A stretch of 64,000 bases of DNA from Promethearchaeota archaeon (GCA_048939995.1 JBHLOY010000008.1:64001-128000), one strand, 5' to 3'. Shown: positions 57,933-64,000, counted from the stretch's first letter. The notes: generated by a model from the letters alone, not told the origin. Numbers and translations: made by a program.

Positions 57933-58253
57933 ATGAGTTTAGATTTCAACTTCTACTTAAACTTAATTTGCTCTATTGGAGGCATCATCTTTTTTATATA
58001 CAGCCTATACTTAATTAGGAAAATTAAAAAGTTATTTCCAGGAGGTAAAGTCACTAAAAAATGGCTTCTCAGGCAGAGTTTAATTATTATATTTCTGGCA
58101 GGCTACATTCTAAACATTATATTTCTTTTGTATGATTTAGTTGATTTAGTCGCTATTATGACAGCTTTAGTTTATTTCTTTGGTGGATTATTTGTTTTTA
58201 TTATCATTAAATTAGTTCATAAAACTTATAAAACCATACTTTTATCGAAATAA
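57933..58253 (+). CDS. Small 3-TM membrane protein
   Basis: Three hydrophobic segments; SD GAGGT. Confidence 0.7.
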   Translation: MSLDFNFYLNLICSIGGIIFFIYSLYLIRKIKKLFPGGKVTKKWLLRQSLIIIFLAGYILNIIFLLYDLVDLVAIMTALVYFFGGLFVFIIIKLVHKTYKTILLSK

Positions 58254-58408: not shown

Positions 58409-58888
58409 TTATGATTTAGGGATAATAATGGAATGATCTTCCTTTATCCTGTCTAAAACGAGCTGGGTTTTTATTTCTTCTACTTCTGGAAGATTACGGA
58501 GATTCTCAATCAGTTTCATAGAATCTTCATGATCAAGACATTTAGCCATTATAAAGATTGGATAATCTCCTGTGATAACATAGGCGTATTTAATTTTATC
58601 CATCCGTTCAATTTCCTCTTTAATTTGCTGAAGTGGTTTCCTTGAATTCACTCGAAGGGACGCAATTACCATCTCCCGATAGTTTAATTTTCGGCAGTCT
58701 ATAATCGCCATGTACTTTTTAATAAAAGTCTCTTCTAATTTCTGAATACGAGCCCTTATTGCCGTCTGGCTCATATTAGTCTGTTCTGCAATTTCTCGAA
58801 TTGTTATTTTACCATCTTCTTGTAATAACTCTAAAATTTGTTTATCAATCGCATCAAGCGTTCCAGGGGTAGAATTTGCTATTACCAT
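58409..58888 (-). CDS. Lrp/AsnC family transcriptional regulator
   Basis: LDAIDKQILELLQEDGKITIREIAEQ HTH; ITGDY RAM domain. Confidence 0.93.
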   Translation of the reverse strand: MVIANSTPGTLDAIDKQILELLQEDGKITIREIAEQTNMSQTAIRARIQKLEETFIKKYMAIIDCRKLNYREMVIASLRVNSRKPLQQIKEEIERMDKIKYAYVITGDYPIFIMAKCLDHEDSMKLIENLRNLPEVEEIKTQLVLDRIKEDHSIIIPKS

Positions 58889-59147
58889 TTAAAAACTCCT
58901 TTTTGAAAAAATTATAATTTATTATAGATCATTAATTATTAATTGCCTTTTATACTTATATTTTTTTTCACTAAGAATCAACTAATAAAAGTTTTATTTC
59001 ACTAATAATGCTTTCGATTGTAAATTATTTAGCTATGATTTAAATATGAGAAAGTATTTTTATCCATAAAGTAATTCACATTTAAATTATTGTGATTGAA
59101 AAAGTTGAAAAAACAGATAAAATAACTAAAAAAGGTGGAAATTTTAA

Positions 59148-59372
59148 ATGTCGGATTTAACACTTGATTGTTTAGGAAAGAAATGTCCAATGCCAGTTTT
59201 AATGACCAAAAAAGAATTGAAGAAGTTGAGTCCAGGTCAGACACTTGAGTTGGTAGTTGATGATAAGGGAGCATTAAAGGATGTACCTGCATTATTGACT
59301 AAAACTGGTGATGAATTGCTTGAAACAAGAGAAGATAATGGTAGAATTACATTCGTGATTAAGAAAGCCTAG
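59148..59372 (+). CDS. tusA: TusA/SirA sulfur carrier
   Basis: LDCLGKKCPMP (CPxP), LELVVDD.GA..DVP. Confidence 0.92.
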   Translation: MSDLTLDCLGKKCPMPVLMTKKELKKLSPGQTLELVVDDKGALKDVPALLTKTGDELLETREDNGRITFVIKKA

Positions 59373-59384
59373 AAAAAGGAGAAC

Positions 59385-59759
59385 ATGAGAATGTCAACAT
59401 ATACTTTCATGATATCTACTGAGCCGTATAAGTTCGAAGCAGTTGATACTTTGCTTAATTTATGTAGAGCAGTGTTACAAAAAGGACATAATATTAAGGG
59501 AATATTTTTTTACGGAAGCGGTGTCTATAATATTAAAAAAGATATTGAAACTGGTATTACTGTTCGTAATTTACCAGCACGTTTGGAAGAATTTATTAAG
59601 GAGAATCAGATTCCAGTCGCTGGGTGTACAACATGGATTGGACTTTGTGGATTAAATGAGCATTGTTTTATTGATGGTGCAAAAGAAGAAGGATTGGGTG
59701 AATTGTCCAATTGGACAGCAGAATCAGATAAACTAATAATGTTTGGAACAGGGGGATAA
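59385..59759 (+). CDS. dsrE: DsrE/TusD-family sulfur relay protein
   Basis: PY...GHNIKGIFFYGSGVYN...AGCTT (conserved Cys)...GLGEL...SDKLIMF. Confidence 0.82.
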   Translation: MRMSTYTFMISTEPYKFEAVDTLLNLCRAVLQKGHNIKGIFFYGSGVYNIKKDIETGITVRNLPARLEEFIKENQIPVAGCTTWIGLCGLNEHCFIDGAKEEGLGELSNWTAESDKLIMFGTGG

Positions 59760-59764
59760 GGAAA

Positions 59765-60133
59765 ATGATCAAATCGGTTGTAATAGTAAGTGACCAATCT
59801 CCAGTCGGAAAAAACTCTGCCATTGAAGCTTTAAGGCTAGGGTCAGGATTTAGGGGATTAGGGGAGGAGATTGACTGCCAGGTGGTACTTATGGGTGATG
59901 CGGTTTACTTATTGAGTAAACACGCAGATCCCTCTAAAATTGGAGTTGATTCTTTTGATGAACCAATGGAAATGGCGGAATTGTCTGATTTAGAAATATC
60001 AGTACTTGACAGCGCTATAAGTGATGCTGGATTAACAAAAGAAGATCTTGTGGAATTTGAGGGTTTAAAGATAATCGATCTCAAAACTCTTGCAGAAATA
60101 ATCGAAAATGCCGATACTACATTTAGATTCTAA
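59765..60133 (+). CDS. dsrF: DsrF/TusC-family protein
   Basis: SPVG..SAIEALRL...VLMGDAVYLL. Confidence 0.78.
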   Translation: MIKSVVIVSDQSPVGKNSAIEALRLGSGFRGLGEEIDCQVVLMGDAVYLLSKHADPSKIGVDSFDEPMEMAELSDLEISVLDSAISDAGLTKEDLVEFEGLKIIDLKTLAEIIENADTTFRF

Positions 60134-60147
60134 GGTGGTGAATAAAA

Positions 60148-60489
60148 GTGGAAAAAGTTATTGATATGGTATATCTTTTTGGATTTAGTCCTAGATTTGG
60201 GAATGAATTAAACCGATTAGTACCAATTCTAAAAAGCCAGATAGAAAAAGGAAAGAAAATAAGCATAGTGTTCATTCATGATGGCGTTATTGGTACTAGT
60301 TCAAAAGGAAAAATTACAGAATCAGTGAATATACTTAGAGGGTTAATGCTTAAGAAATATGTTATGACTCCTGACTTAGCCGCAAGAGGAATTCCATTAG
60401 AGCATATTCAAGAAGATTTACAGCCCATAGATTATATGGAGCTTGTTGATATAATGGAGAATAGTAATAAAATTATCTCATGGATGTAA
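60148..60489 (+). CDS. dsrH: DsrH/TusB-family protein
   Basis: FIHDGV, DLAARG, IDYMELVD...ISW. Confidence 0.8.
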   Translation: MEKVIDMVYLFGFSPRFGNELNRLVPILKSQIEKGKKISIVFIHDGVIGTSSKGKITESVNILRGLMLKKYVMTPDLAARGIPLEHIQEDLQPIDYMELVDIMENSNKIISWM

Positions 60490-60616
60490 TTTAAGAAAAA
60501 ATAGATAAAGTAAATTCAAAAATATTTTTTAAAACAAATAAATCATGGTTAACAAATAGTTAACTCACATAATTAACAAAATCAAAACAAACAAATTTAA
60601 AAAAAAGGTGTAAATT

Positions 60617-61033
60617 TTGGTAGAAAAAATGAACTTTATTGTAAAAGACAAATCTTTTGAAAAGTTTATGATGATGACAATCTTGGGAACCACTGGAAGT
60701 GCAATGGATGTGGAAATGAATTTCTTTTTCACTTTCTGGGGATTAAACCTTTTAAAGAAGAAGTTTAAGCCCAAAGTAGCCGGAATGCCAACACCTATGA
60801 AAGGTATGGCAGCTGGAATGTTCAGGAAACGATTAAAGAAATTTGGTATGGAAGATCCATGGGCCTTGATCAAAGAAGCTATTGACGAGGGAAAAATGAA
60901 ACTATATCCATGTCAAATGACAATGGATTTAATGAACATTAAAAGAGAAGAAATGTGGGATTTTGTAGAAGATCCTATCGGTGCAGCTGGTTTCATAGAA
61001 ATGGCTGATGGTGGCCAAGTAGTCTCATTATAA
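60617..61033 (+). CDS. DsrE2-type (DsrE/DsrF/DsrH-like) sulfurtransferase
   Basis: FFFTFWGL, KLYPCQMTMDLM, IGAAGF. Confidence 0.85.
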   Translation: MVEKMNFIVKDKSFEKFMMMTILGTTGSAMDVEMNFFFTFWGLNLLKKKFKPKVAGMPTPMKGMAAGMFRKRLKKFGMEDPWALIKEAIDEGKMKLYPCQMTMDLMNIKREEMWDFVEDPIGAAGFIEMADGGQVVSL

Positions 61034-61073
61034 AAATTTTTTTTTTTATTTTATATTTAAAGAGGATGATAAA

Positions 61074-61634
61074 ATGTCTGATGTGGAAGAAGAACAACAT
61101 CGGGAATTTATGATTGATGAGGATTTTGACTCAGAGTTTTTTAGAAATATTGAACGTAGATCAAATATATTAAAATGTATCCAATGCGGCACTTGTACTG
61201 CCAGTTGTGAAAGCGGAAGATGGACCGCATTAAAAACACGTTCAATTATCAGGAAAGTTGTGCTAGGAGATTTATCGGTATTAAAGGATCCTGATATTTG
61301 GTTATGCACAACATGTTATCAGTGTTATGAACGATGCCCACGAGATGTAAGGCCTACAGATGTAATTATGGAATTACGAAATTATGCTACTAAGTTAGGA
61401 AACATTTCTCCTAATCATAGAGCGGTTGTTGGATACTTGAAACAATTTGGGCATGCAGTACCCATAAATGATGAGATAAGGAAGCGAAGAGTTGAATTAG
61501 GTTTAGAAGAATTACCTCCTACTGCATTCAAGTTTAAGCAAGAGGGGGATGATAAAGATTTAAAAAATATTGAAGAAAAAATGTTTGATTTACCTCCTGT
61601 TAAGGAGGAAAAAAAGAAAAAAGAGGAGGCATAA
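61074..61634 (+). CDS. hdrC: Heterodisulfide reductase subunit C
   Basis: CIQCGTCTASC and WLCTTCYQCYERCPR; GHAVPIN. Confidence 0.93.
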   Translation: MSDVEEEQHREFMIDEDFDSEFFRNIERRSNILKCIQCGTCTASCESGRWTALKTRSIIRKVVLGDLSVLKDPDIWLCTTCYQCYERCPRDVRPTDVIMELRNYATKLGNISPNHRAVVGYLKQFGHAVPINDEIRKRRVELGLEELPPTAFKFKQEGDDKDLKNIEEKMFDLPPVKEEKKKKEEA

Positions 61635-61637
61635 AAA

Positions 61638-62552
61638 GTGGTAAAAGAAAAAACTTTTGCGTTTTTCCTTGGTTGTATCATGCCCAACCGTTATCCTGCG
61701 ATTGAAAAGTCAACCAAATTTGTTATGGAAAAGTTAGGATACGAGATTTTAGACATGGAAAGAGCAACATGTTGTCCTGCACCTGGTGTATTTCGCTCAT
61801 TTAACAAATTTGATTGGATGGTTGCAGCAGCTAGAAATCTTTGTATCGCTGAAAAAATGGATGCTGATATTTTAACAGTATGTAATGGTTGTTTTGGTAC
61901 ACTTCAAGAAGTAAATAAACATCTTAAAGAAAATGAAGATCATAGAGATAAGGTAAATGAGAAGTTGAAAGAAATTGGAGATTATCAGTTTCAAGGAAAA
62001 ATCAACGTCCGACATGTAGCAGAAGTTCTGGGATATGAGGTTGGACCTTGGGGGATTGAAGATTATATTGTAAGGAAACTGAATGCTAAGGCGGCTGTTC
62101 ATTATGGATGCCACTTTTTGAAACCAACAAGGATTCGAGAAATTGAAAGTTCTGAAGGACCAACAATTATCGAAGAATTCGTGGAAGTCTTAGGAATACA
62201 ATCAGTTAGATTTAAAGAACAACTAACGTGCTGTGGCGCAGGAGGAGGTGTAAAAGCATATTCAGGTGATGCAAGTATGACAATTTTTGCGGAAAAAATG
62301 AAGAATATTGATGAAGTGAAGCCAGATTTTATATTAGATATATGTCCCTTCTGTCATTTACAGTTCGAATCGGGACAGGATTACTTAAACAAAAACAAGG
62401 CATGTAATTATGATTACCCTGTAATCCACCTTTCTCAATTAGTTGCATATTGTATGGGCATGGATCAAGAATTTGTGGGTTTACAATACCAATTAATGGG
62501 TCGGGATTATATTTTTGGGGAAGTTGAAGCGAAAAGAGAGGAGGTAGCGTAA
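61638..62552 (+). CDS. hdrB: Heterodisulfide reductase subunit B
   Basis: FLGCIMPNRYP, CCPAPG, CNGC, HYGCH, CCGAGGG, CPFCHLQF. Confidence 0.95.
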   Translation: MVKEKTFAFFLGCIMPNRYPAIEKSTKFVMEKLGYEILDMERATCCPAPGVFRSFNKFDWMVAAARNLCIAEKMDADILTVCNGCFGTLQEVNKHLKENEDHRDKVNEKLKEIGDYQFQGKINVRHVAEVLGYEVGPWGIEDYIVRKLNAKAAVHYGCHFLKPTRIREIESSEGPTIIEEFVEVLGIQSVRFKEQLTCCGAGGGVKAYSGDASMTIFAEKMKNIDEVKPDFILDICPFCHLQFESGQDYLNKNKACNYDYPVIHLSQLVAYCMGMDQEFVGLQYQLMGRDYIFGEVEAKREEVA

Positions 62553-64000
62553 ATGACTGTCAAAGAAGAAAAAGTAAAAGAGACAAATGACACTCAAGAG
62601 TCATTAGAGCATGAGGAGAGTGAACCTAGAATTGGAGTGTTTGTTTGTCACTGTGGGCATAATATAGCTGGTACTGTTGATGTTGCTGAAGTTGCAGAAT
62701 ATGCAAAAAGTTTACCGAATGTAGTGAAAGCAGAACATTATATGTTTATGTGTAGTAAACCAGGCGTCCAAATGGTTAAGGATTCAATTAAAGAATTAGG
62801 AGTAGATAGAACTGTGGTTGCCTCATGTTCAAAAAATCAACACGGAAGAACCTTTGCTAATGCCATCCAAGAGATGGGTTTAAACAAGCATCGTCATCAA
62901 CAAGTAAATATTAGAGAATTTGATAGTTGGGTGCATCAAAAAGAAAAGGATAAAGCAACTAAAAAAGCAGAAAGATTAATTGAAGCAGGGGTCAATAGAG
63001 CACGTAAATTAGAAGATGTAGAAACTCGGAGAATTCCTACAACCAAAGCTGCATTAGTTATTGGTGCAGGTATTGCCGGTCTTCGAGCAGCCCACGATCT
63101 AGCAGAATTAGGGATTCCAGTTTATCTGGTTGAGCGAGAATCAACTATAGGAGGACATATGACCCAATTAAACAAGACCTTTCCAACCTTAGAATGTCCC
63201 CAGTGTTCCATATCTCCACTTACTAATGGAGTTGCGAATCATCCATTAATCGAACTTTATACAAATGCTCAAATTAAAGAAGTAGAAGGTTCAATGGGTA
63301 ATTTTGAAGTGGAAATTGAAATCAAACCACGATATGTTAAAGATAATTGTACTTCGTGCGGGGAATGTGCAATTCATTGCCCTGTAGAAGTTCCCAGTGA
63401 ATGGGATAAAGGCATGTCTATAAGAAAGGCTATTTATAAAGCATATCCTCAAGCTATCCCAGCCACATATGTGAGAGACAAGAAAAATTGTATCGAGTGT
63501 AATACATGTATTAATGTTTGTCCAGTTCAAGCTGTTGATTTTTCAATGGAACCAGAAACAAAAAGATTTAAAATAGGCTCTATAGTTGTAGCTACTGGGT
63601 ATGATGAATACGATCCTTCCGAAATTGAAGCTTATCATTATAAACAAGAGGGTTATGAAAATGTTATAACCCAACTGCAGGTAGAACGGATGCTTGCTCC
63701 TGGCTCTTTAACTAACAGTCAAGTACTAAGACCTTCTGACGCTAAAATCCCAAAAAATGTAGTGATGATTCAATGCGTTGGAAGTAGAAATGATCAGGTA
63801 GGGAATATATATTGCACAGGAGTTTGTTGTAAATTTGCGATTAAAAATGCTCGAATTATTAAGGAAATGTATCCTAATTCTAATGTTACCATATGTTATA
63901 TAGATGTAAGAACTCCTGGGTTAAATTTTGAGGAATTATATAAATCCTCCCAGGAAGTGGGAGTACGATTCATAAGGGGAAGACCTTCTGAAATTCTTCG
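62553..64000 (+). CDS. hdrA: Heterodisulfide reductase subunit A; runs off the window edge
   Basis: Manual translation: RIGVFVCHCG.NIAG, NIREFDSWVH, IGAGIAG, KTFPTLECPQC, two ferredoxin motifs, IQCVGSR, YCTGVCC; no stop codon before the edge. Confidence 0.95.
   Translation, partial: MTVKEEKVKETNDTQESLEHEESEPRIGVFVCHCGHNIAGTVDVAEVAEYAKSLPNVVKAEHYMFMCSKPGVQMVKDSIKELGVDRTVVASCSKNQHGRTFANAIQEMGLNKHRHQQVNIREFDSWVHQKEKDKATKKAERLIEAGVNRARKLEDVETRRIPTTKAALVIGAGIAGLRAAHDLAELGIPVYLVERESTIGGHMTQLNKTFPTLECPQCSISPLTNGVANHPLIELYTNAQIKEVEGSMGNFEVEIEIKPRYVKDNCTSCGECAIHCPVEVPSEWDKGMSIRKAIYKAYPQAIPATYVRDKKNCIECNTCINVCPVQAVDFSMEPETKRFKIGSIVVATGYDEYDPSEIEAYHYKQEGYENVITQLQVERMLAPGSLTNSQVLRPSDAKIPKNVVMIQCVGSRNDQVGNIYCTGVCCKFAIKNARIIKEMYPNSNVTICYIDVRTPGLNFEELYKSSQEVGVRFIRGRPSEIL

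Follow-up and report, generated by a model that had tools for sequence, protein, structure and literature searches.

Sulfur carriers encoded with a methanogen-type heterodisulfide reductase in non-methanogenic Asgard archaea suggest reduction of protein-delivered sulfur

What heterodisulfide reductase (Hdr) reduces in archaea without methanogenesis is a standing question, and metabolic models of Asgard archaea lean on this enzyme. We address it here for a gene cluster at the end of a 64,000-nucleotide (nt) stretch of DNA, hereafter the window, from a Promethearchaeota archaeon (GCA_048939995.1 JBHLOY010000008.1:64001-128000). A reading of the sequence alone, the original prediction, had placed nine genes at 58409-64000, running from the regulator lrp through five sulfur-carrier genes to hdrC, hdrB and hdrA, and had proposed that HdrB reduces protein-bound sulfur as an electron-bifurcating sink; Pfam and NCBIfam profiles confirm the identities of all nine. 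The host is a Lokiarchaeion with a genome of 3.75 Mb (~30% GC, 98% complete) in which McrA was not found, making it a non-methanogen as had been supposed, and the closest relatives of its HdrB, 65-94% identical, come from Promethearchaeota/Lokiarchaeia records that include P. syntrophicum MK-D1 and Ca. Lokiarchaeum ossiferum. Beyond the end of the window, locus L001 (G000:C38:121000-140999, G000 being the host genome and C38 the contig) holds the rest of hdrA, then mvhD, mvhG*, frhB::gltD and a second tusA, which gives the full order lrp (divergent), tusA-dsrE-dsrF-dsrH-dsrE2-hdrC-hdrB-hdrA-mvhD-mvhG*-frhB::gltD-tusA2. That non-methanogenic Asgard archaea keep a methanogen-type Hdr together with sulfur carriers suggests that sulfur delivered by proteins, and not the methanogen substrate, is what is reduced. 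The cluster offers candidate substrates (the persulfides of TusA2 and DsrE), a candidate electron donor (F420H2 or NADH rather than H2) and a regulator, and its presence in the cultured strains MK-D1, Loki-B35 and Nerearchaeum makes these testable now.

Wherever a Lokiarchaeia locus includes enough upstream DNA, the gene order from tusA to tusA2 is preserved, in MK-D1 and Loki-B35 among others, with L063 as the one exception. When the search was started from TusA2, tusA2 was found directly after frhB in 66 of 71 informative metagenome loci, and after an inserted second hdrCB pair in the remaining 5. Because the order is kept in Lokiarchaeia and the other HdrB clusters of the host genome have no TusA or DsrE neighbours, the linkage is not a matter of chance; carrier neighbours are also missing from eight Methanobacteriales hdrCB loci. 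Across the Asgard archaea, where a synteny comparison had been recommended, the linkage persists in rearranged form in Thorarchaeia: TusA2 and DsrE-family genes adjoin the same HdrB clade in other orders, with three loci (L095, L097, L105) reading hdrCBA-mvhD-mvhG*-frhB-tusA2-dsrE-dsrF-dsrH, other loci often carrying a different DsrE-family gene just before hdrC, and one (L094) having tusA2 and a YeeE sulfur transporter divergent from hdrCBA. Relay-linked HdrBs group in a single clade (99/95) with the host paralogues outside it, in a tree whose outgroup is Methanobacteriales only, with no sHdrB, and from which no origin is claimed. In the host's family MvhG* was found in 48/92 genomes, in the MK-D1 family in 2/7, and in family f7, which its protein names mark as Thorarchaeia, in 5/58. 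It is the survival of the linkage through several rearrangements, some of them involving non-orthologous DsrE proteins, that constitutes the strongest argument for a functional tie.

Some loci carry further hdr genes at this site. A second hdrC-hdrB pair, with identities of 28-37% where these were measured, stands just before or after tusA2 in L040, L071, L123-L125, L138, L141, L144, L148, L157, L160, L171, L184 and L188, and in L148, L157, L184 and L188 FrhB is apparently without the GltD insert. In MK-D1 (L068, L069), a second paralogous hdrCBA cluster, with mvhD as well in L069, is divergent from the tusA end.

The Hdr itself is of the predicted methanogen type. HdrB and HdrC exceed the cut-offs of the methanogen profiles for coenzyme B-coenzyme M (CoB-CoM) Hdr (TIGR03288, 377 against 345 bits; TIGR03290, 177 against 160), and HdrB, 47-49% identical to methanogen Hdr (PDB 5ODC) and with a template-modelling score (TM) of 0.88 to 5ODC_B, keeps all ten ligands of the non-cubane clusters as well as His154. 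HdrA is of the full methanogen type at 634-651 bits, compared with 130 for the short sHdrA-type chain 6TJR, and its K431 and E378 are invariant in 64/64 sequences. Aligned through the HdrA chain 9SFI_A, K431 is the counterpart of the FAD-binding Lys409, whose role at N5 of the HdrA FAD has been described (PMC6405883), and retention of this lysine would fit electron bifurcation. Elsewhere in the genome, contigs C7, C17, C19 and C33 hold at least seven further HdrB-like genes, four with altered pocket residues, and many HdrA variants, including a 1648-residue HdrA-GltD-MvhD fusion.

The arm that would feed electrons into this core appears to be free of hydrogenase. In a confident predicted model of MvhG* (pLDDT, the predicted local distance difference test, of 90), residues 1-259 resemble MvhG of 5ODC (Z 20.9) and residues 265-411 match the NiFe large-subunit fold (6QGT_A, Z 12.5, root-mean-square deviation 2.3, 145 residues aligned). 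Since the cysteines of the protein are confined to the part before residue 190, the tail has no Ni site and cannot bind nickel. The remnant is visible only by structure search, a BLAST comparison of the tail with the hydrogenase large subunit encoded by the host having given no match. The gene for the catalytic NiFe subunit, mvhA, is absent from the cluster, and hydrogenase large-subunit matches sit on other contigs. With MvhG thus fused to a cysteine-free remnant, the electrons probably come from F420H2 or NADH rather than H2. Both the N and C domains of FrhB are present in the frhB::gltD product, and in the GltD insert the second dinucleotide motif is followed by an acidic residue (D464, in 46/50), a feature that favours NADH over NADPH; the FrhB of Thorarchaeia has no GltD insert. 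F420 is plausible since the host genome encodes cofD and cofE over cut-offs. The same two genes form one run with lipS2, a lipoate ligase gene and lipS1 (G000:C23:39759-44967; L110:5760-10968), which joins sHdr-type lipoate assembly genes to F420 synthesis genes, and a second GcvH-like gene lies on the same contig (C23:85963-86358).

On the carrier side, the cysteines that had been predicted to be intact are invariant across orthologues (TusA1 Cys13 in 52/52, DsrE Cys81 in 53/53, DsrE2 Cys99 in 63/63), as is Cys14 of TusA2. DsrE Cys81 aligns to the active Cys78 of A. vinosum DsrE, and the dsrE-dsrF-dsrH triad is thereby present with its active cysteine; DsrE and DsrF give TusBCD-like profile matches with scores under the TusD and TusC equivalog cut-offs, and a structure match to 2QS7 identifies DsrE2 as the DsrE2B type. 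TusA2 is the best-conserved protein of the cluster, with a median identity of 0.90 compared with 0.86 for HdrB and 0.47-0.74 for the upstream carriers. TusA1 belongs to the Lokiarchaeia form of the cluster and occurs in none of the Thorarchaeia loci examined, in a family whose tree is weakly supported (85/74). It is TusA2, encoded outside the window, whose tie to Hdr is the closest. The earlier observation that the window has no dsrC or dsrAB extends to whole genomes, with DsrC in 0/121 and DsrA in 0/61 Lokiarchaeia genomes.

The mechanism we favour, to whose being right and to whose being wrong we give equal credence, is that a bifurcating Hdr reduces sulfane sulfur delivered by TusA2 and DsrE. 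HdrABC, MvhD, MvhG* and FrhB::GltD would form a hydrogenase-free flavin-bifurcating complex to which the carriers supply the oxidant. Electrons from F420H2 would enter at FrhB and, in most Lokiarchaeia, those from NADH at the GltD-like insert, and would pass from FrhB::GltD through MvhG* and MvhD to the FAD of HdrA, where one branch would lead to ferredoxin and the other to HdrB. Persulfide would be loaded onto TusA2 by way of TusA1, DsrEFH and DsrE2, and HdrB would split the S-S bond, releasing sulfide and the free carrier thiol. The hand-over from carrier to HdrB could be direct, or could pass through a small anionic thiol arm, an option left by a pocket still shaped for such an arm. The net result would be a reduction of zero-valent sulfur that takes up electrons from peptide fermentation, provides sulfide for biosynthesis, or does both. 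Gene content, conservation, residues, fold and absences are what the analysis observed; that the complex forms, and what its donors, substrate, direction and physiological role are and whether it bifurcates, is inferred from them. There is precedent for the individual contacts: Aquifex TusA pulls down sHdrB/C (PMC11094781), and the HdrB relative DsrK reduces protein-bound sulfur (bioRxiv 2026.08.25.746951). One could also speculate, as a tentative proposal that may well be wrong, that this is an ancient Asgard clade of bifurcating Hdr, driven by F420H2/NADH via a decommissioned hydrogenase, that takes the persulfide of a dedicated TusA as its direct substrate, TusA playing for it the role that DsrC plays for DsrK, with sulfur and ferredoxin reduction independent of DsrAB and Mcr in Loki- and Thorarchaeia. 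If carrier-delivered sulfur is indeed what the cluster reduces, zero-valent sulfur could serve many Loki- and Thorarchaeia as electron sink or source of sulfur with no H2-consuming partner needed, a matter of consequence for sulfur cycling in sediments and for syntrophy-based models of eukaryote origin.

Several observations weigh against carrier-delivered sulfur as the substrate. The first concerns the pocket of HdrB, whose substrate contacts we took from PMC13261682: Gly46 and Gly198 (which hold the CoM sulfonate) and Arg14 are kept, as is His154, Arg201 is replaced by Lys, and the position of Arg240, Ser here and Ser/Thr in relatives, varies in methanogens too, being Val/Ala in Methanobacteriales. 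The deepest branch of the clade (L103, L108) keeps Arg14, Arg201 and Arg240. With most CoM/CoB-pocket residues retained, the crevice thus seems suited to a long anionic thiol, which is why a small thiol may serve as intermediary from carrier to enzyme; the DsrK pocket, by contrast, has been remodelled for the arm of DsrC (bioRxiv 2026.08.25.746951). The prototype of DsrE2B bound no sulfur compound in vitro (PMC4175335). Among the loci, L063 has no adjacent carriers, and L052 and L053 have no adjacent tusA2. TusA has, to our knowledge, no swinging arm of the DsrC kind. A complex prediction for HdrB with TusA2 (score 0.01) gave no answer and is used neither for nor against.

Energetics and transcription add to these doubts. 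Standard potentials are -320 mV for NADH, about -360 for F420, about -270 for sulfane sulfur, -140 for CoM-S-S-CoB and about -450 for ferredoxin; bifurcation from NADH or F420H2 to ferredoxin with a persulfide as acceptor would therefore be near equilibrium, at it or just beyond, whereas with a CoM-type disulfide it would be clearly downhill. As for the operon, the shared orientation of the genes and the 127-nt gap ahead of dsrE2 are real, but runs of at least five T occur in 49/55 dsrH-dsrE2 gaps and 62/63 dsrE2-hdrC gaps and are rare in other gaps (frhB-tusA2 2/47, tusA-dsrE 3/52, dsrF-dsrH 0/53); they recur after tusA2. Oligo-T is the usual archaeal termination signal, and these conserved tracts after dsrH and dsrE2 cast doubt on the predicted single transcript, the relay possibly ending before hdrC. 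They suggest that hdr and the upstream carriers can have separate transcripts; the carriers may be made in excess or separately, and tusA2 appears to close the hdr unit.

The alternative that survives best, though we consider it unlikely, is that the substrate of HdrB is a small-molecule disulfide, CoM-S-S-R with a CoB-like, coenzyme A (CoA) or lipoyl partner, and that the carriers help indirectly, either by providing sulfur to build a thiol cofactor or the sulfur-rich non-cubane clusters, or by regenerating the partner thiol. Besides the retained pocket and the T-tracts between the carriers and hdrC, this draws on the coenzyme genes of the host, which, without Mcr, encodes ComD and ComE over curated cut-offs (G000:C28:55475-56526; L109:9476-10527) and methanogenesis marker 16 (G000:C5:19242-20537), the CoM synthase ComF in M. 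acetivorans (PMC12068725); both findings also count against a protein-bound substrate, as does the occurrence of marker 16 in 76/92 genomes of the host's family (0/58 in Thorarchaeia). We had entertained the claim that the host cannot make CoM, and rejected it because ComDE and marker 16 were found; many Lokiarchaeia may indeed make coenzyme M, for some other purpose. Methanogen Hdr moreover tolerates altered amino-acid tails of CoB (PMC13261682), and LipS1/LipS2, a lipoate ligase and a second GcvH-like protein are encoded in the genome, outside the cluster, which itself has no lipoyl-carrier gene. The original prediction had named the use of CoM-S-S-CoB by HdrB as what would overturn it, and here the evidence divides: against the pocket and these genes stand the closed MK-D1 genome (G232) and the cluster-bearing Thorarchaeia, in which none of ComA, ComD and marker 16 was over cut-off, so that the cluster does not depend on CoM genes. 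ComA was not found in the host genome either, and cysteate synthase was over cut-off in none of 16 genomes. The carrier-free hdrCB loci of the Methanobacteriales further argue that maturation of Hdr is generally independent of carriers. The proposed sulfur-reduction sink thus retains the linkage, the absences and the HdrA lysine in its favour, and has the CoM/CoB residues and the ComDE and marker-16/ComF genes to contend with.

Distinctly less probable, in our estimation, is that the system runs oxidatively in the manner of sHdr, sulfane of the carriers or sulfide being oxidised at HdrB and the electrons confurcated with those of reduced ferredoxin to F420/NAD+. Because the energetics given above are near equilibrium, the genes do not fix the direction of the reaction, and TusA, DsrE2 and DsrE-type carriers together are hallmark neighbours of sHdr (PMC11094781, PMC4175335); the second hdrCB pair by tusA2 in about a dozen loci also recalls the sHdr layout of two B and two C subunits. 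Yet the full 676-residue methanogen-type HdrA and a cluster without lbpA and shdrH argue otherwise, and the cultured hosts are fermentative syntrophs that need to shed electrons (PMC7015854).

That the carriers are merely a separately transcribed housekeeping relay beside hdr, for tRNA thiolation, molybdenum cofactor or thiamine, is very improbable and largely refuted by synteny, for although the T-tracts after dsrH and dsrE2 and the TusBCD-like matches would suit it, the TusE/DsrC acceptor was not found, MnmA was over cut-off in 0/16 genomes, leaving the E. coli tRNA-thiolation route incomplete, the link is kept in several gene orders across classes with tusA2 inside the hdr unit, and a biosynthetic sulfur relay has genes of its own elsewhere. 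The exclusive role in tRNA thiolation that would have undone the original prediction is thereby largely contradicted. These other genes comprise a second dsrE-dsrF-dsrH set 8 kb beyond tusA2 (G000:C38:140900-144478; L082:1901-5479), with an NMT1-like protein, tusA, thiF/moeB and a divergent thiS-like gene as neighbours, and a tusA-dsrE-iscS-iscU module followed by a CoA-disulfide reductase/rhodanese/TusA/rhodanese fusion (G000:C11:526127-531418; L083:6128-11419), which could possibly act as a persulfide source and a second persulfide reductase. In L057, L149 and L179, a dsrEFH set of the second type converges on tusA2.

Set against known systems, the cluster shares features with four and belongs to none. 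Like HdrABC-MvhAGD of hydrogenotrophic methanogens (5ODC), it has the same type of HdrA, B and C with cluster ligands, His154 and Lys409, as well as MvhD and an MvhG domain, but it departs from that complex in having no MvhA, on which membership was rejected, and in its MvhG fusion, FrhB::GltD input, lack of Mcr and flanking TusA/DsrE genes. The Elp-Hdr of Methanothermobacter marburgensis (PMC12350162) is likewise a hydrogenase-free Hdr with an F420-oxidising FAD subunit connected via an MvhD homologue and a dead remnant as scaffold; there, however, the remnant ElpA is a truncated FdhA, and in its place we find an MvhG-MvhA-remnant fusion derived from NiFe hydrogenase, together with an extra NAD(P)H module, co-encoded sulfur carriers and a non-methanogen host. 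With sHdr-LbpA (PMC11094781, PMC4175335) it shares the clustering of Hdr-like genes with tusA, dsrE2 and other dsrE-type genes. That system is defined by a short sHdrA and the core order shdrC1B1AHC2B2 or B3 (PMC11094781), whereas here HdrA is full-length, the core hdrCB is single, shdrH is missing, DsrEFH takes the place of DsrE3, no lbpA or ligase is linked in the cluster, an MvhD/MvhG*/FrhB arm is present and the host is an anaerobic fermenter, and membership was rejected. The DsrEFH-DsrC (rDsr) and TusA-TusBCD-TusE-MnmA relays have in common with it tusA and dsrE-dsrF-dsrH with the active DsrE cysteine; membership was rejected since no DsrC/TusE acceptor with DsrAB or MnmA was found, and the partner genes here are hdr.

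In the literature, searched with subscription journals largely outside its reach, a single source linking Asgard Hdr to TusA/DsrE was found. The accessible part of this preprint on Nerearchaeum marumarumayae (bioRxiv 10.1101/2025.07.22.663070) lists the cluster (LOKIASV2_09800-09920) and already proposes that Hdr reduces TusA- and DsrE-bound persulfides. Its model, as far as that part sets it out, differs in coupling persulfide reduction to H2 and a group 3c hydrogenase, whose hdrBC sit in another cluster, and the same part gives no account of the cluster as a unit, of a hydrogenase-free F420/NADH arm or of the spread to Thorarchaeia. The core persulfide idea is thus already known, and every module is a known family; new here are the linkage centred on TusA2 in both classes, a structure-based test of the hydrogenase remnant, the finding that the CoM/CoB pocket has been retained, the caution imposed by ComDE/ComF, and the T-tracts within the cluster.

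Table 1 Features of the cluster and its surroundings (window positions; those beyond the window edge refer to locus L001)
Feature	Position	Strand	Description	Basis
lrp	58409..58888	-	Lrp/AsnC-family regulator, 159 aa	Pfam
TATA box TTTAAATA	59039..59046	+	candidate archaeal TATA box of tusA promoter	recurs in orthologous loci; function inferred
Inverted repeat TCACA-N10-TGTGA	59076..59095	.	downstream of TATA box; candidate Lrp operator or 5' hairpin	
tusA (TusA1)	59148..59372	+	sulfur carrier, 74 aa, CPMP, Cys13	Pfam, conservation
dsrE	59385..59759	+	DsrE/TusD-like subunit, 124 aa, active-site Cys81	
dsrF	59765..60133	+	DsrF/TusC-like subunit, 122 aa	
dsrH	60148..60489	+	DsrH/TusB-like subunit, 113 aa	TIGR03011 over cut-off
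T6 tract and short inverted repeat	60525..60564	+	dsrH-dsrE2 gap; possible partial terminator or processing site	
dsrE2	60617..61033	+	DsrE2B-type, 138 aa, single Cys99	closest solved structure 2QS7
T11 tract	61037..61047	+	terminator-like, between dsrE2 and hdrC	
hdrC	61074..61634	+	two [4Fe-4S] motifs	
hdrB	61638..62552	+	both non-cubane sites (10 Cys), His159; pocket R18, G50, G203, K206, S245	
hdrA	62553..64000 in window, on to L001:7584	+	full-length methanogen-type, 676 aa, FAD lysine K431	
mvhD	L001:7538-8029		beyond window	
mvhG*	L001:8019-9254		411 aa; MvhG fused to Cys-free NiFe large-subunit remnant	
frhB::gltD	L001:9257-11725		822 aa; FrhB with GltD/NfnB-like insert	
tusA2	L001:11765-12004		Cys14; common to Lokiarchaeia and Thorarchaeia	

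The regulator was predicted to be divergent and responsive to amino acids. It is divergent in the host, but in MK-D1 and Loki-B35 lrp lies co-oriented within the cluster, between dsrE2 and hdrC, and since Lrp has two invariant cysteines (Cys65, Cys117), sulfur or redox sensing would be as plausible as amino-acid sensing. The arms of the inverted repeat ahead of tusA (Table 1) vary between genomes yet remain complementary; its mean score is 11.3 versus 8.1 for shuffled sequence, and 40/46 loci exceed their own shuffle mean, a comparison among related loci that is indicative rather than formal. A scan for sigma-70 promoters and terminators yielded nothing useful, the model being poorly suited to archaea. 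Converging on lrp, at 57933-58253 (+) of the window, is an open reading frame for a hydrophobic protein of 106 residues with no Pfam or NCBIfam match, whose adjacency to the cluster is not kept in other loci.

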